From the sequence record MT446412.1: a stretch of DNA of 64,000 nt. One strand, written 5' to 3'. Both the position numbers and the translations under genes were made by a program. Position 1 is the first letter of the stretch; each line of letters begins with the position of its first letter. Positions 144 through 55,302 of this stretch are shown piece by piece. This DNA comes from Escherichia virus TH41. The notes beneath the pieces were generated by a model. It was not told the origin of the DNA. It was given only the letters and a program-made list of their open reading frames with translations, and did no database searches.

Positions 144-743
144 ATGTCAGGTTTATATAATCAAACTAACACGACTAACTTTATATTAGAGGTGAGCGAT
201 TCAAACCTCACACAGACCTTTAAACTCAACGTTCAAGACGTTACCCTCCCAGGAGTTCACATTCCTGTGACGGATGTTCCTGGCGGAACACAAGGTATAA
301 ATCGCTCCAGTCTTCCTGGTAGTACAATAGAATTCGACCCGCTGATTGTTAACTTTCTGTGTGACAAAGACCTAAGAGCGTGGCTTGACATCTATAAATG
401 GATGCTCTCGCTCAACAACTACATCACACACGAATCAAAAGCATGGCATCCGAAGGGTCGTCCCGAAGCGGTCACGCTTCATATCTTAGATAATAACAAG
501 GACAAAATTGTCATGTCAATCCATTACTATGGTGCATGGCCGTCCGACCTGTCAGAGATTCAGTATTCATATAAAGAAGATTCTGACCCGGCTATCAATG
601 CAACAGCAACTTTTAACTTTAAGTCTTTTGCTGTAGAAATTGATGGTATAATAATAGAAGGTAGACCACAGATTGATAGTAATGCAGCAATGCAACAGGA
701 AATCAGGTCTAAGTCAATGCATCCATCTATGAGAAACGTATGA
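144..743 (+). CDS. probable tail completion / sheath stabilizer protein (gp3-like, assigned by synteny only)
   Basis: 199-aa ORF, AAGGTG RBS 7 nt upstream, stop overlaps start of gene 1 (ATGA); T4 order 3-1-57A-57B. Confidence 0.45.
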   Translation: MSGLYNQTNTTNFILEVSDSNLTQTFKLNVQDVTLPGVHIPVTDVPGGTQGINRSSLPGSTIEFDPLIVNFLCDKDLRAWLDIYKWMLSLNNYITHESKAWHPKGRPEAVTLHILDNNKDKIVMSIHYYGAWPSDLSEIQYSYKEDSDPAINATATFNFKSFAVEIDGIIIEGRPQIDSNAAMQQEIRSKSMHPSMRNV

Positions 744-1416
744 AATTAATTGCGATTGTGGGTAAAAAACGCAGTGGTAAAGATACGACTGCTGATTATG
801 TTATTAGTCAAAATGGAACAAAGTGGCAGCTTGCAGGTCCGATTAAAGAAGCGCTTTATAACGCGTGGATTCGTCAAGACCTGCCACACAATTTGACCCT
901 GGAAAATTTTGATGGACAAGGTTACGACCGTGAAAAAACCTTAATAATGAACAACACCGAAGCTTATATTCTTCTGGTTGATGCTCTTGAATGGTTGAAA
1001 CAACAATACAATCTTGACCTTCCGAATCCGGATATGGTTCGTAAAATTATTGAATTTCACACACTAAATAATGTTGAGCCCTGGACAGTTAGACGTTTCA
1101 TGCAGACCCTTGGAACTGACATTGTTTGTACAGAGTTCGACAGCATGTTTTGGATTAAAACTTTTGCCTGCGACTATCTTGACAACCTCTATTCTGGATA
1201 TAAATATTACGTTGTCCCAGATGTTCGCCAAAAGAACGAACTTGATTCGCTTCGGGCGATGGGTGCTACAATAATCTTTGTAGAACGCGATGAAGCAAAT
1301 CATTCTACTGATACACACATTACGGAAGCTGGACTTCCACCACTAGCTAGTGACATTGTTATTAAAAACGATGGCACACTCGAAGAACTTTTTGATAAAA
1401 TTAATAAGGTAATATA

Positions 1417-1417
<1 letters not shown>
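740..1417 (+). CDS. 1: deoxynucleoside monophosphate kinase (gp1)
   Basis: N-terminal P-loop VGKKRSGKDTTADY and C-terminal THITEAGLP...NDGTLEELF closely match T4 gp1. Confidence 0.9.
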
Positions 1418-2108
<691 letters not shown>

Positions 2109-2168
2109 TGTACAAATGAGTGTAGGTGCAGTATTATGCTCCTACACCAACGAACAAACGGAGTTAAA

Positions 2169-2501
2169 ATGAACATCAAAACTTATAACGAGTTTTTAGC
2201 CGAATCCGCCATCAATGAGACCAAATCAATTGATGATAGTGAAGGCTCTCTGAAATTTGGTTTAACCAAAAACGCAGATGGTGTTTTCTTTCAGATTGGT
2301 AATGAACGTTTTCAAACGTCCAAATATTCCAAAGCTGCAGTTGAAGCTGTCCTAAAATCTGGTGGCAAGTGGAAAGGCAAAGAAGGTACTAAAGAAATTG
2401 GTATCGCTGTTGACGGTGGTATGGCTTATTTTAAAATTGGCGATGAACAATTTATTATGTCTGCTCGCGGACGTAAAGAACTGGCAAAACTTTATAAATA
2501 A
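2169..2501 (+). CDS. capsid-targeted internal protein (IPI-locus member)
   Basis: N-terminus MNIKTYNEFLAE resembles T4 capsid targeting sequence MKTYQEFIAE; located at ipI position next to 57B. Confidence 0.55.
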   Translation: MNIKTYNEFLAESAINETKSIDDSEGSLKFGLTKNADGVFFQIGNERFQTSKYSKAAVEAVLKSGGKWKGKEGTKEIGIAVDGGMAYFKIGDEQFIMSARGRKELAKLYK

Positions 2502-2509
2502 GGTTTCTT

Positions 2510-2782
2510 ATGAAAACTTTCAATGAATTTTTCAACGAGTCACAACTGAATGAAGAAGTAAAAATTAGTAAAGCAGTCAAATCTATGATTGACAATATCA
2601 ATCACCTGTATAGCATTGACTTGACTGACCATATAACAATTGGTAACAAACGCAACTTTTTCGCGTTTGACATTTCAGAACTTGACCAGAACCAAATTAA
2701 TAACATTGAGCGTTTTGCCAATGACAAGGGTCTCCGTCATGAGACAGCTGGTTATAAAAAATATGCAATTTATCTAAAATAG
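2510..2782 (+). CDS. capsid-targeted internal protein candidate
   Basis: N-terminus MKTFNEFFNE (CTS-like); RBS AAGG upstream. Confidence 0.5.
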   Translation: MKTFNEFFNESQLNEEVKISKAVKSMIDNINHLYSIDLTDHITIGNKRNFFAFDISELDQNQINNIERFANDKGLRHETAGYKKYAIYLK

Positions 2783-2790
2783 GATTTCAA

Positions 2791-3090
2791 ATGCAAACTT
2801 TTCATGAATTTTTGGTAGAAAACAATTACCTGGCAGAAGCAAAAACCTGGCCTCTGGGTCTTCAGAAGAAAAACACCTACAAATGGGTTGACTTCAAAGG
2901 TAAAGGCGACGCTGAAGACTTTGACCAGCTGCGTAAAAATGGTTATACCTTCCTTGACTCTAACTATAACAAAATTACCTCTTTTAGTCAGAAGTCAAGC
3001 ATTGCCTTCATTGAAACTGGTAAGAACTCTCCTAAAGATATCACTGACGACTTCACCGCTTATGGTGTAATTCGTGGTTCAAAAATGTAA
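2791..3090 (+). CDS. capsid-targeted internal protein candidate (paralog of 16952..17215)
   Basis: N-terminus MQTFHEFLVE; shares GDAEDF...RKNGY[TS]F...IAF..G with ORF 16952. Confidence 0.5.
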   Translation: MQTFHEFLVENNYLAEAKTWPLGLQKKNTYKWVDFKGKGDAEDFDQLRKNGYTFLDSNYNKITSFSQKSSIAFIETGKNSPKDITDDFTAYGVIRGSKM

Positions 3091-3145
3091 TGTACACGAT
3101 GGGATAGTTGCAGTATAATTATCCCATCAACTACTGGAGCTACTA

Positions 3146-3424
3146 ATGAAAACTTATCAAGAATTTATTAACGAATCAATTAGTCACCCGGATATGCTGG
3201 AAGACCTGAAAGGACATCTGATGGTTAAGGCCAAACCGGTTGATGGTGGCGCATTTGAGTTGTTTCTTGTTAAAGGCGAAAACGGTCCTGATAACAAGAA
3301 AGTTTCAGCAATGATGTTGACTAAAGGTTACAAAGTCAGTTCTTCCTGGAATGCTCCATTCACTTACGCGGTAAGCCCTCGTGAACTGAAAAAAGTTAAA
3401 GCTGGACAATATACAAAAATTTAG
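3146..3424 (+). CDS. capsid-targeted internal protein
   Basis: N-terminus MKTYQEFINE; preceded by promoter/stem-loop cassette and GGAG RBS. Confidence 0.65.
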   Translation: MKTYQEFINESISHPDMLEDLKGHLMVKAKPVDGGAFELFLVKGENGPDNKKVSAMMLTKGYKVSSSWNAPFTYAVSPRELKKVKAGQYTKI

Positions 3425-3478
3425 TGTACGTGATGGGATAACTGTAGTATGATTATCTCATCAACTACTGGAGACCAC

Positions 3479-3733
3479 ATGAAAACTTATCAAGAATTTA
3501 TTACTGAATCTGCAAATGCAAAAGTTGAGTTTGCTTATGTTGGTTCGCCGCGTGGCAGTTTTTCCAATGAGGAATTCCGTCGTTCACTGGACAATTTCAT
3601 GCAGTTAAGTGCTGAAGTATCGCATGATGGTCGTTATGACATCGTTACTATTAGCGGTTCTGAAGACCTTATCAAAAAGTGGCACAAGCAGAAAGATGTT
3701 GAGATGCGTTACTATCGTATCCCTAAAAAATAA
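3479..3733 (+). CDS. capsid-targeted internal protein
   Basis: N-terminus MKTYQEFITE; start chosen at RBS-supported ATG 3479 rather than upstream ATG 3449 that lies in the promoter. Confidence 0.65.
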   Translation: MKTYQEFITESANAKVEFAYVGSPRGSFSNEEFRRSLDNFMQLSAEVSHDGRYDIVTISGSEDLIKKWHKQKDVEMRYYRIPKK

Positions 3734-3790
3734 GTGTACTTTTAAATGGGATAGTGTATGATTATCCCATCAACTACTGAGGAGAATAAA

Positions 3791-3976
3791 ATGAAACGTT
3801 GCGAATTAATTAGAAATGTTACTGCCCTTGTTGCTGTTACCACTTTTGGTTTTAGCATGTTTGCTGGCTTTATGTTGAATATGCTTTCAACTTCTGAGAA
3901 TATAATCTCTTTAGTAGTTGCATTTTTAATTGGTTCAATCTCTTTCGTTATGGATAAAATCTCTAAAGGTGAGTAA
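3791..3976 (+). CDS. small hydrophobic membrane protein
   Basis: 61 aa, two predicted TM stretches; GAGGAG RBS; start 3791. Confidence 0.5.
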   Translation: MKRCELIRNVTALVAVTTFGFSMFAGFMLNMLSTSENIISLVVAFLIGSISFVMDKISKGE

Positions 3977-3977
3977 A

Positions 3978-4367
3978 ATGTATAAAGTGTATGCGGATTA
4001 TCAGGCAAATCCATCTGAAAAACCAGATTGTCAAATTGGGTGGGCGCATGACACCCTGCTTGAAGCGGTAGACGAAGCTCAAAAATTAGGGTATAGTTAT
4101 GTAGATATTGTTCAACCAAATGGAACAGTTATTACACTTGAAGAATTCAAGAATATCAAAACAAACTTTTTGCTTTTTGCAGGTGATAGCTATTATCCTC
4201 GTGGCGGTTATGCTGACTTAATCGCAAAGGCTGCGACTGAAGATGAACTGCGTGATATCATTAAAGAAAACGAGAAGAAGCCTTGTTATGGTTCCAACCG
4301 TTTTGACTGGTGGCAGATTGTTAATGCCAATACGCATACTATTGTTGATGAAGGAACATGCGAATGA
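3978..4367 (+). CDS. hypothetical protein
   Basis: 129-aa ORF starting 2 nt after upstream stop; stop overlaps next start. Confidence 0.5.
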   Translation: MYKVYADYQANPSEKPDCQIGWAHDTLLEAVDEAQKLGYSYVDIVQPNGTVITLEEFKNIKTNFLLFAGDSYYPRGGYADLIAKAATEDELRDIIKENEKKPCYGSNRFDWWQIVNANTHTIVDEGTCE

Positions 4368-4840
4368 ATATCAAATTTGGTCAGACCATCCCTAAAGGTT
4401 ATGTGATTGAAATTGAAACCTGGGAAAATGATGGTGACAACTATAAAACCCAAACGGTATTTGGCGTAGAAGAACAAGAAATCCAGCAGTACAAATATAT
4501 CCTGGAACTTTTCCATGGTTCGCATTGCAACAACCGCAACAAATGTGGTAATTCAGAATGGGATGTGGTTAAACACTTGGTTATCGCCCACATTGCATCT
4601 GGCGTAAAATCTGGCCAGTTGACTTATGAATTTTTGGATAAAGTTCTTGGTATCCAAGACTTAGAAGCCTTGCTGAATGATGATGAAGAAGCATACTATT
4701 TGAATGAAGCCCTTACTGAGCTCCTTGGTATGGCTTGCGAATATGATGGCGATTTCATGCGTGTAATTTCTTATGTTAAGCTATATATAATCGAAGAAGA
4801 AATCCGAATCCCATCTGTTAAAGGGCTTGATATGCTTTAA
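4364..4840 (+). CDS. hypothetical protein
   Basis: 158-aa ORF, ATGA overlap with upstream gene. Confidence 0.5.
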   Translation: MNIKFGQTIPKGYVIEIETWENDGDNYKTQTVFGVEEQEIQQYKYILELFHGSHCNNRNKCGNSEWDVVKHLVIAHIASGVKSGQLTYEFLDKVLGIQDLEALLNDDEEAYYLNEALTELLGMACEYDGDFMRVISYVKLYIIEEEIRIPSVKGLDML

Positions 4841-4961
4841 CAAAAACGCGTTATTATTAATAAGTACCCTCTATTACCAAAGGTTCTTCCCTCAAAGAAC
4901 CTTTCATAATAGCATGTGCTATTAATCAAACTTACTTTACTTAATTTTACTTGAGGTGCTT

Positions 4962-5231
4962 ATGTTAGTATTAAAATTAGCTTTTTACGACCCTAAAACA
5001 AAGACAACCACTACCAAACGTTGCTCTATTTCGTATGAGTGTCAATTTGGTGAAATTCAGCATCCAACAGGCGAAACCTTTATGTCAATTGGTTGTTCAA
5101 CATTCAATAAAGTCAAATTAATCCCGTTGGTTAATACGGCGGCTTATCTGGTTGCTCCAGAAGAAATGACTTATCATACAATTCAGCATATGGTTAAAGA
5201 TGATAATGCTCCTGCTGGATTTGTAATTTAA
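4962..5231 (+). CDS. hypothetical protein
   Basis: ATG at 4962 with GAGGTG RBS; ends 5 nt before tRNA. Confidence 0.4.
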   Translation: MLVLKLAFYDPKTKTTTTKRCSISYECQFGEIQHPTGETFMSIGCSTFNKVKLIPLVNTAAYLVAPEEMTYHTIQHMVKDDNAPAGFVI

Positions 5232-5236
5232 TTTTA

Positions 5237-5312
5237 GGCCCTGTAGCTCAATTGGTTAGAGCATCCGGCTCATAACTGGCAGGTTTCCGGTTCAAGTCCG
5301 GATGGGGCCACC
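5237..5312 (+). tRNA. tRNA with CAU anticodon (Met or lysidine-modified Ile)
   Basis: Cloverleaf by hand: acceptor GGCCCTG/TGGGGCC, D-arm GCTC..GAGC, anticodon loop CTCATAA, T-arm TCCGG-TTCAAGT-CCGGA; one mismatch in anticodon stem. Confidence 0.7.
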
Positions 5313-5389
5313 CGGGGTGTAGCTCAATTGTATAGAGCAACGGTCTTCTAAACCGTAGGTTGTGGGTTAGAATCCCACCACCCCGACCA
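5313..5389 (+). tRNA. tRNA-Arg (anticodon UCU)
   Basis: Acceptor CGGGGTG/CACCCCG, anticodon stem ACGGT/ACCGT, loop CTTCTAA, T-arm GTGGG-TTAGAAT-CCCAC, encoded CCA. Confidence 0.8.
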
Positions 5390-5404
5390 ATTACTGAGGA
5401 TATT

Positions 5405-5644
5405 ATGGTTATTAGTGAATCATATGCAGTTATGGATATAACCAGCAACGAGCTGGTTTATAGCTTTGATGAGTTTGACGAAAATGATAAACAAGTCCCA
5501 TGGTTTGCATTAACTGCTCCACCTGAACATAATAAATATCTAAGTTTCCCGACTCGCAGACTAGCAACAAATTTTATGGAATTCAATGACCTTGATTCCA
5601 ATTATAAGGTTGTTAAAGTCAAATTAGCTATTACAATTGAATGA
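5405..5644 (+). CDS. hypothetical protein (tRNA-region ORF)
   Basis: ATG 5405 with GAGGA RBS immediately after tRNA-Arg; 79 aa. Confidence 0.45.
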   Translation: MVISESYAVMDITSNELVYSFDEFDENDKQVPWFALTAPPEHNKYLSFPTRRLATNFMEFNDLDSNYKVVKVKLAITIE

Positions 5645-5649
5645 GAAGC

Positions 5650-5860
5650 CGGGTCGCTACCGGTAAGTCGTCGGGGCCTGTTCCCTGGGGTATTGTTCCT
5701 CCCACAGTTTTCTGTGTTCTGGTTCTTTACTATCACATCAGGCACGGCGCACCCTTTTACGGAGTTTTTCCAGAGCGGGCGGTGCGCCCGGTAGTATGAG
5801 AAATCCGAGCGGATGGTGCATCCGGTACTATGGAATATAAATATTAACAACAACCCTAAT
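5650..5860 (+). ncRNA. candidate structured small RNA(s), possibly analogous to T4 rnaC/rnaD
   Basis: GC-rich segment with no credible sense ORF, 8-bp inverted repeat GGCGCACC/GGTGCGCC and GGATG..CATCC hairpin; sits downstream of tRNA cluster. Confidence 0.35.
5836..5843 (+). promoter_or_regulatory. T4-type late promoter TATAAATA
   Basis: Exact TATAAATA about 30 nt upstream of ORF 5875. Confidence 0.5.
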
Positions 5861-5874
5861 AATGGAAAAACAAA

Positions 5875-6258
5875 ATGCTTACATATGCAGAATTTTTAAA
5901 TCGCAATACCATCACCGAATCCGTACTGACTGAAGCTGGCAAATTTTCTTTAGTGGCTCCAGAAAAAGCCGGCGTTTCAATTGGTGACCGTGTTATGTTC
6001 AAGAAACCAGTTAATGGCGTTTCTTGGGGTATCGTAACTGGGTTTGGTATCAAAGCTAAAGATGTTAAAAACGCCGCCGCGCCAGGTGCTAAACTAGCCG
6101 GTTCCAAAGTTTCAACTTATATGGTTCGTCCTAAACAGTCTCCAGGTAATGGTGCCGCTGACTGGGTTGGTGCTCCAATCGAAATCGCTCGTGATAAATT
6201 CTTGAACATCACTGACCGTGCCAACGAACGCGCTGCAATGGCATTCGCTCGCGGATAA
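5875..6258 (+). CDS. hypothetical protein with CTS-like N-terminus
   Basis: N-terminus MLTYAEFLNRNTITE; late promoter upstream; terminator downstream. Confidence 0.5.
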   Translation: MLTYAEFLNRNTITESVLTEAGKFSLVAPEKAGVSIGDRVMFKKPVNGVSWGIVTGFGIKAKDVKNAAAPGAKLAGSKVSTYMVRPKQSPGNGAADWVGAPIEIARDKFLNITDRANERAAMAFARG

Positions 6259-6295
6259 GAACACTTGCCTTGCAGGTGGAACCCCGACAAGGTAT

Positions 6296-6325
6296 AGCCC
6301 CTTCCGAAAGGTTGGGGCTTTTTTA
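6296..6325 (+). terminator. Rho-independent terminator
   Basis: AGCCCC-loop-GGGGCT followed by TTTTTT. Confidence 0.7.
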
Positions 6326-6347
6326 TAAATCAACTAAAGAGAAACGT

Positions 6348-6902
6348 ATGAAACTGTTAAAATATTTGAGTTGGATTCTGTTAGTTCCGCTGGATTTTAT
6401 CTCCATGATTCTGGCCGTTATCCTGGCTCCATTTGTAGTTCCGTTCCATAATAAAAAGACTGGTAAACTTCCGTTCGGGTTTGATTGGATGATGACTTAT
6501 GATAATCCGATTGATGGTGACCGTGGTCATATCAAACGTTGGTCAAAAATCCGAAAATGGCCATTAGGTGTTTACTTCCAACGAGTAGCCTGGCTCTGGC
6601 GAAACAAAGCATACAATTTTGCTTACCACAAGCTCGGTCGTGATTGCAATTCAGAATTCCATTATAAAGGTAATCCTGATGTTGAATCTGGTTCCCCAGA
6701 TAAAGCTCATCATGGATGGCTCTTTATGTGGACGGACAATGCCTGGGGTGTTTTTGCTTCTGTTCCTTATCTTAAGGTCGGTGGAATCACCTTTTATCTG
6801 CGTGTTTATTGTGGCTGGAAGCTCAAGAGCCTTCTGTCCCGACCCATCCCTAAGGCTATGCTCGCCTTTCATATAAATCCGTTCCGCTTTTATAAGAACT
6901 AA
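6348..6902 (+). CDS. membrane-anchored hypothetical protein
   Basis: N-terminal TM helix (WILLVPLDFISMILAVILAPFVVPF), 184 aa. Confidence 0.5.
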   Translation: MKLLKYLSWILLVPLDFISMILAVILAPFVVPFHNKKTGKLPFGFDWMMTYDNPIDGDRGHIKRWSKIRKWPLGVYFQRVAWLWRNKAYNFAYHKLGRDCNSEFHYKGNPDVESGSPDKAHHGWLFMWTDNAWGVFASVPYLKVGGITFYLRVYCGWKLKSLLSRPIPKAMLAFHINPFRFYKN

Positions 6903-15614: not shown

Positions 15615-16103
15615 ATGAATATATTCGAAATGTTACGCATAGATGAAGGTTGTAAGTTGGATTTGTATAAAGATACAGAAGGCTTTTGGACCATCGGTAT
15701 CGGGCAACTGATAACTAAGAACCCATCGAAAGATGTAGCTCGCGCTGAGCTCGACAAGCTTATGGGTCGTGTTTGTAATGGTCGCATAACCCAGCACGAA
15801 GCTGAAACATTGTTTAATCGTTCGGTCGAAAAAGCTAAAGCCGGAATCTTGAGACACCCTGTCTTAAAACCTGTTTATGATGTACTGGATGAAGTTCGTC
15901 GTTGTGCGCTCATTAATATGGTATTCCAGATGGGTGTTGCTGGTGTTGCTGGTTTTCCTAAGGGTATGCGATTGTTGAAGGCTAAATCATGGGAAGCCGC
16001 CGCTAAGGAACTGGCCGACTCGAGATGGTATAAAGTCCAGACTCCGAACCGGGCTAAACGAGTTATCGAAACTTTCCGCACCGGAACTTTTGACGCATAT
16101 TAG
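15615..16103 (+). CDS. e: endolysin (T4 lysozyme e)
   Basis: [12 protein letters not shown]...[11 protein letters not shown] matches T4 lysozyme including catalytic Glu11/Asp20/Thr26 region. Confidence 0.95.
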
Positions 16104-16158: not shown

Positions 16159-16575
16159 ATGACTCGCATTAATTTAACTCTGGTATCTGAACTTGCTGAC
16201 CAACATCTTATGGCTGAATATCGTGAGCTTCCTCGCGTGTTTGGTGCAGTTCGCAAACATATACAAAATGGTAAAAAGGTTTCTGACTTTAAAATTCCAT
16301 CATCTTTTCTTTTAGGAACTGGTCATGTCACCTTCTTTTATGATAAACTTTTGTTCCTTAAAAACCGTCATCAAGAACTTATTGCGGAATGTTTAAAGCG
16401 AGGGTTTAACATAAAAGATATTTCTACCCAAGATTTAAATGATATTCCTGATGAATGGAAGAATGATTATCAACCATCAATCTGGTCAATTGAAATCAGT
16501 CAAGCCAGACTGAATGAGAAAATTTCTCAAAAGCCTACCTGGTACAAATACTATGGGAAAGCTGTGTACGCTTAA
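16159..16575 (+). CDS. denV: endonuclease V (pyrimidine dimer DNA glycosylase, denV)
   Basis: [29 protein letters not shown]... near-identical to T4 denV. Confidence 0.95.
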
Positions 16576-16623: not shown

Positions 16624-16938
16624 ATGAAAACTTATCAAGAATTTATTACTGAATCTACCCAAAAACGTGTTGAAGGCGGTTATGTCTGGATTGAACAGTT
16701 AACCCCACCAAGTGAAACAAGCACAGGTTCATGGAAAATTACTGTTGATGGTCCTGGCGGCAAACGCAAGACTATTAAAGAAATTAAAGGCTATTATGAT
16801 GAAGCTAAATCATGGGCGGGTAGTCATGTAATGCAGATTAAAATTGCAAATCCGGATAACGTTCATGCAGCAAAAGCATTCCGTCGTATTGGTAATAAAC
16901 TTTATGATGCGTTTTTGCGCGATTTCCCTAAAGCTTAA
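16624..16938 (+). CDS. capsid-targeted internal protein (IPII/IPIII-locus member)
   Basis: MKTYQEFITE at RBS-consistent ATG 16624 (upstream in-frame ATGs lie in the promoter). Confidence 0.6.
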   Translation: MKTYQEFITESTQKRVEGGYVWIEQLTPPSETSTGSWKITVDGPGGKRKTIKEIKGYYDEAKSWAGSHVMQIKIANPDNVHAAKAFRRIGNKLYDAFLRDFPKA

Positions 16939-16951
16939 TTAAAGAGACATT

Positions 16952-17215
16952 ATGAAAACGTATCAAGAATTTATTACTGAATCTGCCAAAGCTCCTGCTG
17001 GTTCCTTTAAAGTCCGCGCCTTCGCTGGCGATGCTGAAGACTTTGGCACCATGAAGCGCAATGGTTATTCTTTCTTTGGTGGCGATGGTAAAGAAATTGT
17101 CACATATGCAAAACGTCGCGAAATCGCATTCGTGGTTGCTGGTAAGAAAGTTGATGCTGACGATATTGAATGGGACTTTGAGACCTTTGGTATTGTTTCT
17201 GGCGGTAAAGCATAA
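16952..17215 (+). CDS. capsid-targeted internal protein
   Basis: MKTYQEFITE; paralog of 2791..3090. Confidence 0.6.
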   Translation: MKTYQEFITESAKAPAGSFKVRAFAGDAEDFGTMKRNGYSFFGGDGKEIVTYAKRREIAFVVAGKKVDADDIEWDFETFGIVSGGKA

Positions 17216-17217
17216 CT

Positions 17218-17246
17218 GTTTACTTTATGATGGGATAGTGTATAAT
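17218..17246 (+). promoter_or_regulatory. early promoter with -10 inside stem-loop
   Basis: GTTTAC-17 nt-TATAAT; inverted repeat ATGGGATA/TATCCCAT brackets the -10; followed by GAGGAG RBS. Confidence 0.6.
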
Positions 17247-17274
17247 TATCCCATCAACTACTGAGGAGAATAAA

Positions 17275-17472
17275 ATGTTAACTTATAAAGAATTTATGAA
17301 AGAAGTTAAAAAACTTAAAAAGACTTCTGGCGATGTTAAAATTGAAATCCATGGTCAAAACGTAAATGTGGTAGCGGATGGCCAGGCATTAGTTCTTTAT
17401 AGTGATAAAGACCAAGAATTTCGTGAAGCACAAAAGAAAAAATTTACCGTATGGCTTAAAAAAGCTGTTTAA
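17275..17472 (+). CDS. small basic protein with CTS-like N-terminus
   Basis: MLTYKEFMKE...; 65 aa. Confidence 0.5.
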   Translation: MLTYKEFMKEVKKLKKTSGDVKIEIHGQNVNVVADGQALVLYSDKDQEFREAQKKKFTVWLKKAV

Positions 17473-17480
17473 GGACCAAT

Positions 17481-17780
17481 ATGAAAACGTATCAAGAATT
17501 TATCACAGAAGCCAAAGCTCCTAAAGCATTTCAAATCGGAGTCCAGGGCAATTTAGACCAACAATATGTTGATGCTATTGTCGCAAGCCTCGGTAAACAA
17601 GGTGTACAAGTGGATTTGGTTGATTTTACTAAAGGTAATACTTTTAATATTGTCGCATCTAAAGGTTCTTTAGCTAAAGTTAAAAAGGCCTTTGGCGTAG
17701 CACAAGCATATGAAATTGACCATTCTGAATTAGAAAATAAAGGTCGCCAGAACACAATTAAAGGCTCTGGTTCTTTTTAA
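17481..17780 (+). CDS. capsid-targeted internal protein
   Basis: MKTYQEFITEAKAP... Confidence 0.6.
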   Translation: MKTYQEFITEAKAPKAFQIGVQGNLDQQYVDAIVASLGKQGVQVDLVDFTKGNTFNIVASKGSLAKVKKAFGVAQAYEIDHSELENKGRQNTIKGSGSF

Positions 17781-23668: not shown

Positions 23669-23677
23669 CATTTAGGG

Positions 23678-23707
23678 GTTTACATCACCATAAAAAGGGT
23701 GTACTAT
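23678..23707 (+). promoter_or_regulatory. early promoter
   Basis: GTTTAC-18 nt-TACTAT followed by TATCCCATCAACTACTGAGGAG 5'UTR cassette. Confidence 0.5.
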
Positions 23708-23735
23708 TATCCCATCAACTACTGAGGAGAACACA

Positions 23736-23939
23736 ATGAGAATTAAAAATATCAAGATTGATGCAGTTAATACTGGTGATGAGGTTGTTATCTATCTTAA
23801 TGATTATGCAATCTTTATGGACAGTGCCACTGATGAAGAAGTGGTTGAACTCTTACAGAAAGCTCCATTTGAACTGTGTGAAGAAGATGCTACCCATCTT
23901 TCATCAGCAATTTTCTCATTATCATATGTGGTGGAATAA
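23736..23939 (+). CDS. small acidic hypothetical protein
   Basis: 67 aa. Confidence 0.45.
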   Translation: MRIKNIKIDAVNTGDEVVIYLNDYAIFMDSATDEEVVELLQKAPFELCEEDATHLSSAIFSLSYVVE

Positions 23940-37662: not shown

Positions 37663-37902
37663 AAAGGGGTGTACAAGCCCCTTTGAATGATGTATCATTA
37701 TCCCATCAACTACTGATGAGGAGAACATTATGACTATCCAAGATAAAGAAATTAAAGTCAACCAGTATTATTCAATCAACGGCAAAGCTGTTCTAGTAAC
37801 TGAAATATCTAGCCTGGATGTGTGGTATACCATAATTGACCTTAATATTAAAATGATTTGTGACCGTGGTGTATTTTGCTCGATAGCTAAGGAAATTAAA
37901 TT

Positions 37903-39890: not shown

Positions 39891-40448
39891 ATGAACGAAA
39901 TTAAATTAACCAAGAATAACTATGTAAATAATAAAGAGCTTTTGAAAGCTATTTCGGAGTGGAAACAGAAGCTGAATGCGAACACCGACCCGAACAAAAT
40001 TATTCGCCAGAACGATGTTATTGGTCTGGCGATTATGCTTATAGCCGAAGGTCTTAGCAAACGTTTCAACTTCTCCGGATATACCCAATCCTGGAAGCAA
40101 GAAATGATTGCTGACGGTATTGAGGCCGCAATAAAAGGTCTTCACAACTTCGACGAAACAAAATACGATAATCCACATGCTTACATAACAATGGCTTGCT
40201 TCAATGCTTTCGTTCAGCGTATCAAAAAAGAACGTAAAGAAATGGCAAAGAAATATAGCTACTTCGTCCATAACGTATATGATTCACGTGACGACGATAT
40301 GGTGGCTCTGGCTGATGAAACATTTATCCAGGACATCTATGACAAAATGACACAGTACGAATCCTCTTTAGTTAAAGCGCCAGGGTCTGATAAGAGCGCC
40401 AAAGATAAAGAAGGTGATTTGGATTTTTTATATGGAACATCAATTTGA
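39891..40448 (+). CDS. 55: late-transcription sigma factor gp55
   Basis: [13 protein letters not shown].....[45 protein letters not shown], near-identical to T4 gp55. Confidence 0.95.
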
Positions 40449-40665
40449 TATTACCGATTTTTTAGATAAAATCGAGGAAGACTTTACGGCTCTCCCATAT
40501 TTCATTAAACTTTATCTGCGAGACATAAAAGGTCTTCCAATTGATATCGACCCTTTAAACGTCCGGAATCTGGAATTTACTTCTCCGGACAATAACGTTG
40601 ATTACCGTTATCATGTGGATAATGCTAATCTATATTTTACAATTGAGTTAACTCCCAAGGATTAA
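40432..40665 (+). CDS. hypothetical protein
   Basis: ORF overlapping end of gene 55; start uncertain. Confidence 0.4.
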
Positions 40666-40666
40666 T

Positions 40667-40978
40667 ATGCAAGCTCCAGATATTTCTCAACTGACCGATA
40701 AGCAGATTGAAGAAGCACAGGAACGTCTCGAAGAAGCGAACGCACTCGAAGCAACCAGTCAAGCAGCGAAGATTCTGAAAAAGAATGCTCGTGAAATTGC
40801 ACGACTGAATAAGCATGCTCAAGGCGCAGTGCTGGAAAACAATTTTGAAGCATACAAATACGCTTTAGTTAAACTGCGTGGGATTTACCGCCAACCCGTT
40901 ACGGAAGACCTGATTAAGTTGATGTGGGATTCTACTCGCAAACAAATTTGGGAAATCGTAAATGGCATTAGTAAATAA
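40667..40978 (+). CDS. hypothetical protein
   Basis: 103 aa helical. Confidence 0.45.
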   Translation: MQAPDISQLTDKQIEEAQERLEEANALEATSQAAKILKKNAREIARLNKHAQGAVLENNFEAYKYALVKLRGIYRQPVTEDLIKLMWDSTRKQIWEIVNGISK

Positions 40979-41162
40979 ACCCTTTAAACGGCTTCTTATT
41001 GGAGCCGCTTTCAGACTTCGCTCATATGGTAATATCTGTATCAAGCAGACCGAAACCGAATACAAAATGATGGGCCAATATTCTGATGGTATTTTTAAGA
41101 TTGAGCCTGTAGCCAAGGTTTGGGTAGATTCTCATCAACTTAAGAAATGGTGGCAACGATGA
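40962..41162 (+). CDS. hypothetical protein
   Basis: 66 aa. Confidence 0.4.
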   Translation: MALVNKPFKRLLIGAAFRLRSYGNICIKQTETEYKMMGQYSDGIFKIEPVAKVWVDSHQLKKWWQR

Positions 41163-41384
41163 TAACATGGACAGGTGGCTAATGAACGACGAACATCCAG
41201 ATTTTTAAGAGGTCATATGAATGACGAATTCGACGGATTTTGATAAGATTAAATCTGACAAAAACGAGATGATTCTTCAATTTGAAGCTGCTCGTATTAA
41301 AGCAGAAAATGAAGGTACTATTACCTATAAGCCTATCAAGTTCAGGTCTTCTCACGAACCTCTGTACGGTGTATTAATTGGAAA

Positions 41385-41407
41385 GGAAGCCTAGTGCTTC
41401 CTTTTTT
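41385..41407 (+). terminator. Rho-independent terminator
   Basis: GGAAGC-CTAGT-GCTTCC then TTTTTT. Confidence 0.7.
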
Positions 41408-41591
41408 GCTTTATATTCGGGATGATAAAATGAACCAACTGAGGAGAGTATATGGAATTATTTTTAGGATATGTCGTGTTATTCATGGCATTCTACACAT
41501 TCACAAGAGCTTGTTGGATAGGATTCTTTTCTACTCCTGACGGGTTCATTTCAGTAATTTTATTTTGCATTGCAATAACGGTGCTTGGCTT

Positions 41592-42611
41592 ATGAAAATT
41601 TTAAATTTAGGTGATTGGCACTTAGGTGTCAAAGCTGACGACCCATGGGCTCAAAACATTCAACGCGATGGTATTTTACAGGCGATTGCATATTCCAAAG
41701 CGAATGGGATTAAAGTCTGGATTCAATATGGTGATATTTTTGACGTCCGTAAGGCCGTAACGCATAAGACGATGGAATTCAGCCGTGAGATTATGGAACT
41801 CCTTCGTGAAGCAGGAATTACTATGCACACGATAGTCGGGAACCATGACATGAATCTGAAGAATAAGATTCATCCTAATGCTATCACTGAGCTCCTGAAT
41901 AAGTATGACCATGTTAAAATCTATGATAAGCCAACGACTGTTGATTTTGACGGTTGTCAGATTGATATGATTCCATGGATGTGCGACGAGAACGCAACTG
42001 ACATTCATCAACACATCAAAACTTCTGGGGCTGAATATTGCATCGGTCACTGGGAATTAACCGGGTTTTATTTCTATAAAGGATTGAAATCCCACGGACT
42101 TGAGCCTGATTTCCTTAAGAAGTACAAGCAAGTTTGGTCTGGTCACTTTCACACAATTTCAGAAGCTGCAAACGTTAAGTACATCGGGACCCCATGGACA
42201 TTAACAGCAGGTGATGAGAACGACCCACGCGGGTTCTGGGAATTTGATACCGAAACCGAAGAGATGAAATTTATTCCGAATGAAACCACCTGGCATCGGA
42301 AGATTTTTTATCCAAACGAAACTATTAACTACGACGACTTCAAAGACTTATCAGTCCGTGTTATTGTAGAAAAAGTCGATAAAGACCTGACCAAGTTCGA
42401 ATCTGAATTAGAAAAGCGTGTACATGAATTGCGTGTTGTCAATAAGGTTGATAACAGTGTTGATACGACTGACTCCGAAGAAGAGTTAGACATAAAACGC
42501 TTAACTGATATGATGGCAGAATATATTGATGCATTACCTGACACCAATGAGAAAGAATCAAAAGCTCTTAAAGCATTGGCCAACAAATTATATCTTGAGG
42601 TGCAACCGTGA
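41592..42611 (+). CDS. 47: recombination endonuclease subunit gp47 (Mre11-like)
   Basis: MKILNLGDWHLGVKADD...GNHD phosphoesterase motifs; matches T4 gp47 start. Confidence 0.9.
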   Translation: MKILNLGDWHLGVKADDPWAQNIQRDGILQAIAYSKANGIKVWIQYGDIFDVRKAVTHKTMEFSREIMELLREAGITMHTIVGNHDMNLKNKIHPNAITELLNKYDHVKIYDKPTTVDFDGCQIDMIPWMCDENATDIHQHIKTSGAEYCIGHWELTGFYFYKGLKSHGLEPDFLKKYKQVWSGHFHTISEAANVKYIGTPWTLTAGDENDPRGFWEFDTETEEMKFIPNETTWHRKIFYPNETINYDDFKDLSVRVIVEKVDKDLTKFESELEKRVHELRVVNKVDNSVDTTDSEEELDIKRLTDMMAEYIDALPDTNEKESKALKALANKLYLEVQP

Positions 42612-48407: not shown

Positions 48408-51122
48408 ATGCAAGAATTTTATTTAACTATCGAACAAATCGGTGACAACCTACTCGAACGATATATTGACAAGAATGGTCATGAACGTGTTCGTGAAATC
48501 CCTTATGCTCCATGCTTGTTTATGCACGCCCGCGAAGACCAAGCTGCAAAGTATACAGACATCTATAATAAAGGTTGTGTGAAAAAAGAATTCGATTCCA
48601 TGCGTGATGCATCCCAGTGGATGAAGCGAATGAATGACATGGGTCTCGAAGCTATGGGTATGGACGACTTTAAACTCGCATACTTGTCCGACCGTTACCC
48701 ACACGAAATCAAATATGATTCAAGTAAAATCCGTGTTGCTAACTTCGATATCGAGGTGACATCTCCTGATGGGTTCCCTGAACCGTCTGAAGCACGTCAC
48801 CCTATTGACGCCCTGACGCACTATGATTCGGTAGACGATAAATTCTATGTCTTTGACCTTTTGGGCTCACCATACGCCACTGTGGAGCAATGGTCTATTG
48901 ATATTGCTGCTAAGCTGCAGGAAGACGGTGGTGATGAAGTCCCGGAAGAAATCCTGGAAAAAATTGTTTATATGGCTTTCGATTCAGAAGAAGAAATGCT
49001 CCAGCAGTATTTGGTATTCTGGAACGAGAAAACTCCGGTTATGTTAACTGGTTGGAACATCGAGAAGTTTGATATTCCATATATCTACAACCGCCTTAAA
49101 AATGTATTTGGTGAAGCTACAGCAAAACGTCTGAGCCCACATCGTCGTACAAAAGTTAAGGTCATTAACAACGGCTTTGGCGAAGAACAAGAAATCATTC
49201 AGATTCTGGGTATCTCTGTTCTGGATTATCTGGACCTGTATAAAAAGTTCAGCTTCACAAACCAACCGTCTTATTCGTTGGATTATGTTGCGGAATCTGA
49301 ACTGGGTGTTGGTAAACTCCCGTATGATGGCCCGATTTCTAAACTGCGCGAATCAAATCACCAGCGGTATATTTCTTATAACATCATCGACGTTTATCGT
49401 GTTGTGCAGATTGACCGTAAGCGACAGTTTATTAACCTGAGTCAGTCAATGGGTTATTACGCAAAAATGCAGATTCAGTCTGTATTCAGCCCAATCAAAA
49501 CTTGGGATGCGATTATCTTTAACAGCTTGAAGACTCAAAACAAAGTTATTCCGGAAACCAAATCGCATGTTCGCCAATCGTTCCCTGGTGCATTTGTTAA
49601 GGAACCTATTCCGAACGCATACAAATATGTAATGAGCTGTGACTTAACATCTCTGTATCCGAGCATCATCCGACAGATTAACATCAGTCCAGAAACGATT
49701 GCCGGGTCATTTGCGCCAGCCCAGATGTATGAATACATCGCAGGAACTGCTGACCGTCCATCTGATACATTTAGTTGTGCTCCAAATGGTATGATGTATT
49801 TTAAAGATGTTGCGGGTATTATTCCGACAGAAGTCACCAAGGTGTTTAATCAGCGTAAAGAGCACAAAGGCTATATGCTTGCGGCTCAACGTAATGGTGA
49901 ACTGATTAAGGAAGCTCTGCGTAATCCAGGAACTGGCACAACCGAACCAGAAGTTGATTATCGTCATGACTTTGATGACAATATGAAAACGGCCCTGCAT
50001 GGTCTGAATCAAACAGTCCTAAATGGTATGCTGTACAAAGCGCAGATGGAAGAAGTTGCAGGCATGACCGCACAGATTAACCGTAAACTGCTTATCAACA
50101 GTTGTTATGGCGCTCTGGGTAATATCTGGTTCCGTTACTTTGACCTGCGAAATGCAACCGCGATTACATCTTTCGGACAACTTGCACTGCAGTGGATTGA
50201 GCGTAAAGTTAACGAATACTTCGATAGTGTTTGTGGTACAAGCGGTGAAACTTATGTGTTCTATGGCGATACTGACTCCATTTATATCCAGTGCGATAAC
50301 CTGATTAAAAAGGTTGGTGGCGAATCTAAATTCCGCGATACAAACCACCTGGTTGACTTCATGGACAAGTTTGCGAAAGACCGTCTGGAACCGGCAATCG
50401 ATAAAGCTTTCCGTGAGCTGGCTGAATACATGAACAACAAACAGCACCTTATGTTTATGGACCGTGAGGCGATTGCATGTCCTCCGCTGGGTTCGAAGGG
50501 TGTGGGTGGATTCTGGACGGCGAAGAAGCGTTATGCGTTGAACGTGTACGATATGGAAGGCACACGTTATGCTGTTCCAAAATTGAAAATCATGGGTCTG
50601 GAAACTCAAAAGTCGAGTACTCCAAAGGCATGTCAGAAAGCTCTGAAAGAATGCATCCGCCGTATGCTGCAAGAAGGTGAAGAATCTCTGCAGACATACT
50701 TCAAGGAATTCAATAAGGAATTTAATGAGCTTAACTACATGACCATCGCAGGGGTATCATCGGTTAACAACATCCAGAAATATAATGAAGGTGGTTTCCC
50801 TGGATTTAAGTGCCCGGCTCATATCAAAGGTGTGCTTGCATATATGCGTGCAACTAAAGGTCTGAAGACTGTTCCGCAAATCATGGAAGGGGAAAAGGTG
50901 TATGTACTTCCTCTTAAAGTCGGCAACCCATTTGGTGAAACCGTGATTGCATGGCCATCAGGGATTGAACTCCCGATTGAAATTCGTGACCAAGTCTTGC
51001 AGTGGATGGACTACAACACACTGTTCCAGAAGACTTTTGTCAAACCGTTAACAGGTTTCTCTGAAGCTGCAAAGGTTGATTACGAAAAGAAAGCAACTCT
51101 TTTTGATATGTTTGACTTTTAA
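48408..51122 (+). CDS. 43: DNA polymerase gp43 (family B)
   Basis: 904 aa; exo motifs (FDIE, YNIIDV), polymerase motifs (DLTSLYPSII, YGDTDS) and long colinear similarity to T4 gp43. Confidence 0.97.
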   Translation: MQEFYLTIEQIGDNLLERYIDKNGHERVREIPYAPCLFMHAREDQAAKYTDIYNKGCVKKEFDSMRDASQWMKRMNDMGLEAMGMDDFKLAYLSDRYPHEIKYDSSKIRVANFDIEVTSPDGFPEPSEARHPIDALTHYDSVDDKFYVFDLLGSPYATVEQWSIDIAAKLQEDGGDEVPEEILEKIVYMAFDSEEEMLQQYLVFWNEKTPVMLTGWNIEKFDIPYIYNRLKNVFGEATAKRLSPHRRTKVKVINNGFGEEQEIIQILGISVLDYLDLYKKFSFTNQPSYSLDYVAESELGVGKLPYDGPISKLRESNHQRYISYNIIDVYRVVQIDRKRQFINLSQSMGYYAKMQIQSVFSPIKTWDAIIFNSLKTQNKVIPETKSHVRQSFPGAFVKEPIPNAYKYVMSCDLTSLYPSIIRQINISPETIAGSFAPAQMYEYIAGTADRPSDTFSCAPNGMMYFKDVAGIIPTEVTKVFNQRKEHKGYMLAAQRNGELIKEALRNPGTGTTEPEVDYRHDFDDNMKTALHGLNQTVLNGMLYKAQMEEVAGMTAQINRKLLINSCYGALGNIWFRYFDLRNATAITSFGQLALQWIERKVNEYFDSVCGTSGETYVFYGDTDSIYIQCDNLIKKVGGESKFRDTNHLVDFMDKFAKDRLEPAIDKAFRELAEYMNNKQHLMFMDREAIACPPLGSKGVGGFWTAKKRYALNVYDMEGTRYAVPKLKIMGLETQKSSTPKACQKALKECIRRMLQEGEESLQTYFKEFNKEFNELNYMTIAGVSSVNNIQKYNEGGFPGFKCPAHIKGVLAYMRATKGLKTVPQIMEGEKVYVLPLKVGNPFGETVIAWPSGIELPIEIRDQVLQWMDYNTLFQKTFVKPLTGFSEAAKVDYEKKATLFDMFDF

Positions 51123-51124
51123 GT

Positions 51125-51154
51125 GTTTACAACGGCAATGGATTGCCGTATGAT
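51125..51154 (+). promoter_or_regulatory. early promoter
   Basis: GTTTAC-18 nt-TATGAT with inverted repeat CGGCAAT/ATTGCCG in spacer. Confidence 0.5.
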
Positions 51155-51191
51155 TACCCCATCAACTGATGAATAACTTGAGGATATTAAA

Positions 51192-51434
51192 ATGGAAACA
51201 TTAATTGCGGGTACTGTTGTTCTTGGTGCAGGTTCTTTCTTCCTGGCTGCACTGGCATATTTTCTGCCGTGGATTATCGCGCTACTGCGTGGAACCAAAA
51301 GTAATTGCGGAATCTTCTTTGTTAACCTCCTGTTAGGTTGGACAATGGTCGGATGGTTTATTGCATTTATCTGGGCACTCGTTGCTGAACGTAAATCAAA
51401 CGCACAAGTAATTATCATCAAGGAATCAAAATGA
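51192..51434 (+). CDS. small two-TM membrane protein (Imm-like by position)
   Basis: 80 aa, two TM helices; adjacent to gene 43 as T4 imm. Confidence 0.45.
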   Translation: METLIAGTVVLGAGSFFLAALAYFLPWIIALLRGTKSNCGIFFVNLLLGWTMVGWFIAFIWALVAERKSNAQVIIIKESK

Positions 51435-51582
51435 AGATAATTACAATTATTGTATTGATTGCATTTTTTAGTATGTCAATCTATTGGGCAATAATGACTC
51501 CACATATGATTCCAACTTTAATTTTGGGTTGGGTATTTTTGGGGCTCCAAGCCCGCTATGAATGTTTTAATTAGGAAGCAAA

Positions 51583-52086: not shown

Positions 52087-52277
52087 TGTTATTATTACTT
52101 CTGATTGTTGTAACAGTAATTGGTTTGCTGCTATTAGAAAAGCGTAATAAGCATTTGGCTGAAGAAAACTGGAAATGTGGTAACGTTTACTGAGTTAATT
52201 GCTCTAAAAATACAGTGATATAATTATCCTATCTTAAACCTGTGAGAAAAATATAATGGTGCCTATGGAAAAAATGA

Positions 52278-55233: not shown

Positions 55234-55241
55234 ATTTAGAG

Positions 55242-55271
55242 GTTTACAACACCATAAAAAGGGTGTACTAT
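55242..55271 (+). promoter_or_regulatory. early promoter
   Basis: GTTTAC-18 nt-TACTAT; near-identical copy of the cassette at 23678. Confidence 0.5.
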
Positions 55272-55302
55272 TATCCCATCAACTACTGATGAGGATAATA
55301 AA

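Follow-up and report, generated by a model that had tools for sequence, protein, structure and literature searches.

What five short genes are doing in a T4-like phage at a site where T4 itself carries a single gene is the question raised by the left end of the window, as the whole 64,000-nucleotide stretch of Escherichia virus TH41 DNA analyzed in this study (sequence record MT446412.1) is called here. The five genes, A to E (Table 1), begin with variants of one short leader and continue into bodies that differ from each other. To our knowledge, no phage counter-defence other than injected internal proteins (IPs) is in place before phage genes are expressed. The array is the polymorphic IP locus of T-even phages, on its ipI side. 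A swappable IP locus has been known since 1994, and the array is real but mostly ordinary and adds no new principle. According to the accounts in PMC4122927 and PMC3012670, polymorphic IP loci with a conserved leader and flanking promoter/terminator repeats were described by Repoila et al. 1994 (EMBO J 13:4181). What this study adds are 11 ORFs that start with a capsid targeting sequence (CTS), an ORFan (gene D) confined to the genus, a predicted fold for the product of gene A, the missing genes 42, a-gt and b-gt, and cassette breakpoints that lie where the CTS codons end or within promoter/stem-loop repeats.

Location and gene order

The window belongs to Gaprivervirus (T4-like) and is 99.4% identical to Escherichia phage UPEC01. 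The gene order is gp1, 57A, 57B, A-B-C-D-E, trna.4, trna.3 and tRNAs, with all five ORFs on the plus strand and a Shine-Dalgarno-like GGAG, AGGA or AAGG 5' of each. T4 carries one gene here, ipI, as an earlier note on this DNA had stated; it lies between 57B and trna.4, and it is this ipI site that the five-gene array occupies. All five ORFs were found at the starts that the note gave for them; its outer boundary at 2136, however, is merely an upstream in-frame ATG of the longest ORF, and relatives annotate the 110-aa form from 2169. Counterparts of A-E are present in public genomes, where B is annotated as Ip9, C as an internal head protein and E as an internal virion protein, and where A and D are hypothetical proteins with no IP annotation.

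Table 1. Positions of genes and expression signals in the window (a slash marks the predicted cleavage position in a leader; PeSL, promoter/stem-loop)
Feature	Position	Strand	Description
Diverged promoter/stem-loop 5' of A	2107-2165	+	GTGTACA, 17-nt spacer, TATTAT; -10 inside hairpin GTGTAGG...CCTACAC; promoter match 2109-2137
Gene A	2169-2501	+	110 aa; leader MNIKTYNEFLAE/S; predicted mature 98 aa, pI 9.3; phrog_3966; hypothetical
Gene B	2510-2782	+	90 aa; leader MKTFNEFFNE/S, Phe replacing L/I at 8, canonical LNE/E at 13-15; predicted mature pI 6.8; Ip9 homologue; phrog_7673 (internal head protein)
Gene C	2791-3090	+	99 aa; leader MQTFHEFLVE/N, second LAE/A at 14-16; phrog_2667 (internal head protein)
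PeSL-like element, C/D junction	3084-3145	+	TGTACA, 17-nt spacer, TATAAT; hairpin GATGGGATA...TATCCCATC round -10; then CAACTACTGGAG (Shine-Dalgarno)
Gene D	3146-3424	+	92 aa; leader MKTYQEFINE/S; predicted mature 82 aa, pI 9.6; phrog_15565; hypothetical
PeSL-like element, D/E junction	3418-3478	+	85% identity to copy at 3080-3139
Gene E	3479-3733	+	84 aa; leader MKTYQEFITE/S; predicted mature 74 aa, pI 9.0; phrog_8111 (internal virion protein; Ip6-like N-terminal part)
PeSL-like element closing array	3727-3790	+	5' of trna.4 homologue; 22-nt core TATCCCATCAACTACTGAGGAG
trna.4 homologue	3791-3976		3' of array
ORF F	5875-6258	+	Sixth CTS-like ORF; 127 aa; 3' of tRNA-Met and tRNA-Arg; N-terminus MLTYAEFLNRNTITE/SVLTE/A; predicted mature pI 10.1
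Second IP locus	16624-17780	+	After e and denV; four CTS ORFs
ORF G	16624-16938	+	Second IP locus
ORF H	16952-17215	+	Second IP locus
PeSL of second IP locus	17211-17274		
ORF I	17275-17472	+	Second IP locus
ORF J	17481-17780	+	Second IP locus
ORF K	58428-58595	+	55 aa; starts MKTFKDFINE/N; T4 gp61.1 orthologue

Leader peptides

Translated in all six frames, the window contains the motif T[YF]x[ED]F[ILVFM] 12 times (0.65 expected), and 11 of these occurrences are at most four residues from an initiator Met, where 0.05 would be expected and where no more than one was seen in any of 200 shuffles. Experiments on the CTS of IPIII identified an aromatic residue at position 4 and Phe at position 7 as determinants, together with L/I at 8 and Glu at 10 for cleavage by the prohead protease gp21 (PMC9026906). 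In all of A-E, position 4 is Y or F and position 7 is F (A has two additional N-terminal residues), and the gp21 motif L/I-x-E stands at CTS positions 8-10 in A (LAE), C (LVE), D (INE) and E (ITE). The fit to these determinants is full in four of the five ORFs, the exception being B, whose gp21 site is uncertain because FNE is non-canonical at P3 and the canonical LNE is found further on. At conserved leader residues the genes use different synonymous codons (ACT/ACG/ACA, GAA/GAG, ATT/ATC), which means that conservation acts on the peptide. The recognition of a T4-type CTS at these starts in the earlier note therefore stands for all five ORFs, but the sequence MKTYQEFIAE is the propeptide of T4 IPII and IPIII and not that of IPI, which begins MKTFKEFTSTTTPVSTITE. 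The CTS is reportedly the subject of work by Mullaney and Black from 1996.

The predicted mature forms of A-E have 74-98 aa, with a pI of 9.0-9.6 for A, C, D and E versus 6.8 for B, and in size and pI they resemble the small basic T4 proteins IPI, IPII and IPIII (pI 9.0-9.65). The leader determinants, the synteny with ipI and the PHROG and RefSeq names of B, C and E together support the reading of A-E as CTS-tagged internal proteins. A literature search for a Gaprivervirus virion proteome found none.

The leader is not confined to the array, as 11 CTS ORFs (A-K) were found in the window and, for comparison, four in the parts of T4 that were examined (15-50 and 63-78 kb). The Arg at position 10 of F implies a longer, IPI-style propeptide in that protein, and the T4 counterpart of K, gp61.1, also begins in a CTS-like manner (MKTFKEFIKE). 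Gene C is paralogous to H in the second IP locus (E = 8e-15). A and G were also considered as paralogues through their common family phrog_3966, and this was rejected since BLAST aligns the leader only and the leaderless hhalign probability is 0.4%.

Payloads

The bodies of the five ORFs had been called unrelated to each other, and this was borne out once the leaders were removed: no pairwise BLAST match was better than E = 0.1, hhalign gave every payload pair, T4 IPI, IPII and IPIII included, a probability of at most 1%, and A-E fall into five different PHROG families. Homology of any of the five to T4 IPI was not detected by BLAST (E > 0.7) or hhalign (at most 0.3%), and tblastn searches of the window with the T4 IPI, IPII and IPIII payloads gave nothing below E = 0.25. 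Pfam and NCBIfam contained no significant match for any CTS protein, and no enzymatic domain was seen in the payloads; PDB sequence searches with A, D and E gave no match, and no resemblance of the payloads to known anti-defence proteins was found in Pfam, NCBIfam, PDB sequence and hhalign searches. When the D payload was run through an exhaustive HMMER search, the only matches besides its own cluster were three long repetitive proteins, regarded as spurious, and the single-sequence AF2 model of D (pLDDT 47.6) was unusable for fold search.

In payload A a bbbba unit is duplicated internally, and the predicted fold of this payload is Whirly/PUR-like, in a model of moderate confidence (pLDDT 72.5) with weak Foldseek E-values and 6-13% sequence identity to Whirly/PUR/MRP members.

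Promoter/stem-loop repeats and recombination breakpoints

The early-type promoters in the array are supplied by the PeSLs. A promoter scan gave matches at 2109-2137 and 3091-3119, and early -35 and -10 elements are found together with a stem-loop (hairpin arms GGGATA...TATCCC); the PST/T4-type early promoter consensus is TTTACW...N17...TAYWAT (PMC4122927). The PeSL core is present in seven copies in the window, second IP locus included, against zero expected, and the copy of TATCCCATCAACTACTGAGGAG at 17247 in that locus is unchanged and has nearly identical flanks. A T4-type internal protein would be expected to be made during prohead assembly, from a late promoter or through persistent transcription. 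No clear late-promoter motifs were found 5' of A, D and E, and the clear ones are only before F and K, where TATAAATA stands 31 nt and 16 nt upstream, respectively. The sole TATAAATA in the array, at 2493, was considered as a late promoter for B and rejected: the Tyr-Lys-stop codons of A spell it out, and at 10 nt from the ATG it leaves no room for a ribosome-binding site.

When the locus was compared with those of phages VR20, VR25, VR26 and ECML-359, homology was seen to break at the ends of the CTS codons (2820, 3175 and 3525) or in PeSLs (~3109, ~3416 and ~3720). In ECML-359 the breakpoint at ~3109 is in the C/D junction PeSL, and in VR20 Ip6 stands in place of the E payload between 3525 and 3720. 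Among phages with 92-97% identity elsewhere, coverage of the locus drops to 43-65%. Across 28 IMG/VR loci and close relatives, sites hold at least 0-5 CTS genes in varied combinations, drawn from 17 payload families and one spurious singleton, these counts being lower bounds as the regex survey misses drifted leaders (e.g., VR20 MKTFNELFNE, MQTLHEFLVE).

Function of the array

The explanation that best accounts for these data, at a probability of roughly 70%, is that the ipI-side IP locus of Gaprivervirus consists of five independent CTS cargo genes whose products are injected and most likely carry anti-nuclease payloads, in an array that is reshuffled by recombination. The CTS of about 10 residues would bind each protein to the scaffolding core of the assembling prohead, gp21 would cut after the Glu of L/I-x-E, and the small, mostly basic mature protein would stay in the head with the DNA and be ejected into the next host before any phage gene expression. 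Once there, the payloads would most likely act as stoichiometric inhibitors of host-defence nucleases with one target each, like T4 Ip1, Ip2 and Ip3. Homologous recombination would have built and reshuffled the array, its substrates being the CTS-coding 30 nt and the ~60-bp PeSL-like repeats that bound the cassettes A-B-C, D and E. It is from the anatomy of the genes, the motif fit, the synteny, the payload diversity and the breakpoints that we infer packaging, cleavage, injection and an anti-defence function for A-E. Weighing against this explanation are the Phe in place of L/I in the first gp21 site of B, the missing late-promoter motifs before A, D and E and the lack of likeness between the payloads and known anti-defence proteins in the searches above, along with two points on GmrSD taken up next, the negative results with other ip genes and the missing gene 42, a-gt and b-gt.

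T4 Ip1, Ip2 and Ip3 are inhibitors of GmrSD enzymes, a different one for each protein (Silas 2025, PMC12373910), and an anti-restriction role of diverse injected IP payloads is a standing hypothesis (PMC3012670, PMC12373910), which means that the anti-restriction interpretation of the array is published and not new. GmrSD was at first assumed to be the likely target here as well. This was downgraded after no homologues of gene 42, a-gt or b-gt were found at syntenic positions in the window, though the flanking 43, uvsX, 47 and 55 are present, and in view of reports that Gaprivervirus lacks these three genes genome-wide (PMC8056088, PMC12115623). Since the genes for the glucosyl-hmC substrate are missing, a GmrSD enzyme specific for glucosyl-hmC is a doubtful target. 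The suggestion in the earlier note that the locus is a source of new anti-restriction effectors is therefore retained as the published hypothesis, which holds for T4 Ip1/Ip2/Ip3, but its analogy to IPI and GmrSD is weakened in a genus without hmC and glucosylation genes. Ten further ip genes gave no new inhibition of GmrSD variants (Silas et al., PMC12373910), and a literature search for Ip4/Ip7/Ip8/Ip9 gave unrelated papers only.

The CTS route also carries Alt, an ADP-ribosyltransferase (PMC9026906), and injected effectors with targets other than restriction, either in other aspects of host take-over or in non-nuclease defences such as abortive infection, signalling or toxin-antitoxin systems, would suit a genus without the glc-hmC pathway that GmrSD enzymes recognize as well as the inactivity of the ten other ip genes (PMC12373910). 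This is doubtful, however, as payloads of this size show no enzymatic domain in Pfam or NCBIfam, every IP of known function is a Type IV restriction inhibitor (PMC12373910), and a protein that arrives ahead of the DNA is of most use against nucleases attacking that DNA. The proteins could also be packaged mainly as structural or physical parts, that is, as basic DNA-associated fillers that serve charge neutralization, head morphogenesis (as proposed for IPIII) or DNA ejection, rather than as specific inhibitors. Four of the five predicted mature proteins are basic, head assembly is aberrant in IP-null and IPIII-minus T4 and IPs co-purify with gp22 (PMC9026906), and the predicted fold of payload A is of a nucleic-acid-binding type. 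However, fillers would not explain why the payloads are unrelated, why they are present or absent among phages that are ~95% identical or why there are ORFans such as D, and all three T4 IPs have specific anti-restriction targets (PMC12373910), all of which makes this account unlikely.

There is also the question of whether all five genes are functional. D is an ORFan found in Gaprivervirus only (17 near-identical phage records) and E is found in 14 phage records only, in 3 clusters; together with the lack of distant homologues and the low-confidence model of D, this could indicate that some of the five, D and E especially, are decaying cassettes whose 5' ends are kept merely as recombination and expression signals. 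That is very improbable, as both ORFs are intact, have Shine-Dalgarno sequences and are 94-100% identical across isolates from several countries, the CTS residues are maintained through synonymous changes, and a poor single-sequence AF2 model is expected of any ORFan.

Under the preferred reading of injected anti-nuclease cargo, all three T4 IPs being specific restriction inhibitors makes the uncharacterized payloads at IP loci a ready list of candidate anti-defence proteins. The array and its relatives in the window offer a compact test set of five, and up to eleven, small proteins with defined predicted processing sites. The targets of the payloads could also reveal what attacks the DNA of Gaprivervirus. 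More tentatively, this genus without the known hmC/glycosylation pathway might hold the largest known CTS cargo sets, and these would be a pre-loaded arsenal against DNA-targeting defences other than glc-hmC GmrSD, with payload A possibly a Whirly/PUR-like DNA shield or mimic. Such an arsenal could be aimed at classical restriction (Types I-III) acting on unmodified DNA or at Type IV enzymes for a yet unrecognized base.

Comparison with known systems

The PeSL cassettes of T4-type phages (Arbiol 2010, PMC2839356; Comeau 2014, PMC4122927) likewise have a GT(G/T)TAC -35, a 17-nt spacer and a TAYNAT -10 in a hairpin. The array elements are like them in that they repeat at the boundaries of variable genes, match recombination breakpoints and fit the PST/T4-type consensus. 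They differ in that here the CTS-coding 30 nt is a second recombination substrate, located inside the genes, so that payloads can be swapped behind an existing leader, as at the three breakpoints at CTS codon ends. With the Whirly/PUR/MRP fold of single-stranded nucleic-acid-binding proteins, the resemblance is limited to predicted payload A, and membership is not claimed.

The T4 internal proteins share with the array the N-terminal CTS and gp21 site, the small basic (predicted) mature proteins, the loci (by 57B and by e/denV) and the flanking promoter/hairpin repeats. However, none of IPI, IPII and IPIII is homologous to the array payloads, and the array is larger, with five genes. IPI* and Ip2/Ip3 are said to be GmrSD Type IV inhibitors, in work of Bair, Rifat and Black from 2007 and of Rifat from 2008 as well as that of Silas. 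The array payloads differ from them in having no sequence similarity, and the phage DNA probably lacks glc-hmC, the substrate of the known GmrSD targets. What the two would have in common is the delivery logic, a pre-made inhibitor injected with the DNA, and they share the signature of an arms race, with many unrelated and narrowly distributed payloads in one hotspot.

Results

Reading the sequence alone, the earlier note had described five consecutive small ORFs that each begin with a capsid targeting sequence (CTS, the leader of about ten residues of the T4 internal proteins, IPs), and the ORF positions, motif statistics and T4 synteny all bear this out. ORFs A-E are present in tandem on the + strand, and a Shine-Dalgarno-like sequence lies 5' of all five. 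The note began the span at 2136, where there is an ATG, but this is merely an upstream in-frame start of A, and relatives annotate the 110-aa form. As it also stated, T4 has one gene at this site, ipI alone between 57B and trna.4. Window region 1600-6400 is 99.4% identical to Escherichia phage UPEC01 and 92-98% identical to VR7, VR20, SP18 and other Gaprivervirus (Tevenvirinae). There are just two tRNA genes at the site, compared with eight plus rnaC, rnaD and segB in T4, and an Rfam search of 1900-6400 found no RNA families beyond these tRNAs.

Coordinates of the CTS ORFs and neighbouring features in the window
Feature	Coordinates	Strand	Length (aa)	N-terminus	PHROGs family and label	Position or remark
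gp1	740-1417					first in gene order at the locus
57A						after gp1, before 57B
57B	1653-2108					precedes A-E
A	2169-2501	+	110	MNIKTYNEFLAE	phrog_3966, unknown	
B	2510-2782	+	90	MKTFNEFFNE	phrog_7673, internal head protein (Ip9)	
C	2791-3090	+	99	MQTFHEFLVE	phrog_2667, internal head protein	
D	3146-3424	+	92	MKTYQEFINE	phrog_15565, unknown	
E	3479-3733	+	84	MKTYQEFITE	phrog_8111, internal virion protein	
trna.4	3791-3976					follows A-E; then trna.3
tRNA-Met (CAT), tRNA-Arg (TCT)	5237-5389					after trna.3
F	5875-6258		127	CTS-like, Arg at position 10		3' of the tRNA genes
e	15615-16103					
denV	16159-16575					
G, H, I, J	16624-17780			CTS		second IP locus, after e and denV
Gaps without gene 42 (dCMP hydroxymethylase), a-gt, b-gt	40433-41592, 51122-52278					between 55 and 47, between 43 and uvsX
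K	58428-58595		55	MKTFKDFINE		upstream of primase gene 61; orthologue of T4 gp61.1

Translated in six frames, the window contains 12 instances of the motif T[YF]x[ED]F[ILVFM] (0.65 expected), and 11 of the 12 lie just behind an initiator Met (<=4 residues), where 0.05 are expected and 200 shuffles gave at most 1. Synonymous codons differ at the conserved leader residues, which argues that the peptide is conserved and not merely the DNA. The earlier note gave MKTYQEFI[AT]E as the T4 CTS of IPI, IPII and IPIII, but MKTYQEFIAE belongs to the T4 IPII and IPIII propeptides, the IPI propeptide being longer (MKTFKEFTSTTTPVSTITE). For the IPIII CTS, work of the Black laboratory as given in PMC9026906 has residues 1-10 sufficient for packaging, residues 4 and 7 as the main targeting determinants, residues 8 and 10 needed for processing, and cleavage by the prohead protease gp21 after Glu in L/I-x-E. 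In all of A-E, residue 4 is Y or F, residue 7 is F and residue 10 is E; residue 8 is L or I in A, C, D and E and F in B, which carries a canonical LNE at 13-15 behind this noncanonical residue. Predicted mature sizes range from 74 to 98 aa. The predicted pI is 9.0-9.6 for A, C, D and E, against 9.0-9.65 for mature T4 IPI*, IPII* and IPIII*, and 6.8 for B.

Eleven CTS ORFs were found in the window versus five in the earlier note; T4 regions 15-50 and 63-78 kb hold four. ORF F has ITE/S and LTE/A sites at 13-20, an IPI-like long propeptide and a late-promoter motif (TATAAATA, 5836-5843) 31 nt upstream, and had no match in PHROG, Pfam or NCBIfam. ORFs G-J follow e and denV, whereas T4 ipIII and ipII lie between those genes; H and C are paralogues (E = 8e-15). 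Both K and T4 gp61.1 (NC_000866 18966-19130, starting MKTFKEFIKE) have CTS-like starts ending in a gp21-type site, though TATAAATA precedes K and is absent before gp61.1. Annotated only as hypothetical, gp61.1 may be an unrecognised packaged peptide.

The claim that the array bodies are mutually unrelated held: leaderless A-E gave no pairwise BLAST match better than E = 0.1, profile-profile comparison of every pair among A-E and T4 IPI, IPII and IPIII gave probabilities of at most 1%, and the five fall in separate PHROGs families. A tblastn search of the window with the T4 IP payloads found nothing, the A-E payloads had no match in Pfam or NCBIfam, and PDB sequence searches with A, D and E were empty. 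ORF A occurs in 55 phage records from several genera (identity down to 48%) and E in 14 records (three 90% clusters); D is confined to Gaprivervirus (17 records), forming one cluster among 5.8 billion proteins, with no credible remote homologue among 1.8 billion representatives. An AF2 model of A (11 sequences; pLDDT 72.5, pTM 0.60) has two bbbba repeats, a predicted fold that offers a lead to Whirly/PUR-like, possibly nucleic-acid-binding proteins; for D, AF2 run on the single sequence gave no usable model.

A repeat of about 60 bp precedes D, E and trna.4, and a diverged copy of it precedes A. The layout of the repeats is GT(G/T)TAC, a 17-nt spacer and TAYNAT; a hairpin (GATGGGATA...TATCCCATC) encloses the -10 box, and CAACTACTG(A/G)GGAG after it is the source of the ribosome-binding site. 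These elements fit the PST/T4 promoter consensus given in PMC4122927, and they match the promoter-early stem-loop (PeSL) cassettes, mobile regulatory elements of T4-type phages. Seven copies of the core are present in the window (0 expected), one of them at 17247 inside the second IP locus, where a PeSL separates H and I. Three copies outside the IP loci (core TATCCCATCAACTACTGAKGAG; 23672-23738, 37663-37729 and 55236-55302) presumably mark other hyperplastic regions. The A/B and B/C gaps are 8 nt each; A-B-C is one cassette, and D and E are single-gene cassettes.

Breakpoints against close relatives coincide with PeSL-like repeats or the end of the CTS codons. Homology with VR20 runs to 3525 (codon 16 of E) and returns at 3720, with Ip6 in place of the E payload, and that with ECML-359 runs to 3109 and returns at 3416, with Ip5 in place of D; homology ends at the C leader end in VR26 (2820) and the D leader end in VR25 (3175). 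In a survey of relatives and 28 IMG/VR loci retrieved via gp57B, the number of CTS genes at the site ranged from 0 to 5, in varying combinations, with payloads of 17 families plus one spurious singleton and the longest arrays in Gaprivervirus; some leaders have diverged, so that these numbers are minimum estimates.

Discussion

The interpretation in the earlier note is the accepted one, and the phenomenon was described in 1994: Repoila et al., as cited in PMC4122927, PMC3012670 and PMC12373910, reported polymorphic IP loci with a conserved leader and flanking promoter/hairpin repeats and proposed a role in host range. GenBank already contains the array sequences, some of them under the names Ip9, internal head protein and internal virion protein. 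A, D and E are only hypothetical in most deposited records, and A and D are members of the IP class unrecognised in public annotation.

The best-supported reading is that the CTS would carry each array protein into the prohead core, gp21 would then remove the leader, and the mature protein would enter the next host together with the DNA and act there ahead of any phage gene expression. We infer packaging, cleavage, injection and anti-defence activity of A-E; the sole experimental precedents for IP function are Ip1, Ip2 and Ip3 of T4, each an inhibitor of its own, distinct GmrSD-type Type IV restriction enzyme, with no cross-protection (PMC12373910). That paper proposes GmrSD variants as targets of all proteins from the two Ip loci, and its assays of ten further ip genes gave no new interactions.

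This idea is less transferable to the present phage because T4 gp42, a-gt and b-gt, sought in the window by tblastn, were not found; their neighbours 43, uvsX, 47 and 55 are in place, with intervening gaps of only about 1.1 kb. According to PMC8056088 and PMC12115623, Gaprivervirus are without known genes for synthesis of hydroxymethylcytosine (hmC), yet keep dCTPase, denA, denB and alc; the two papers suggest an unknown base. Therefore, the array IPs may target other nucleases. The most useful point of this study is the unusually large set of CTS cargo set against the absent hmC/glucose pathway, which makes a concrete experiment worthwhile.
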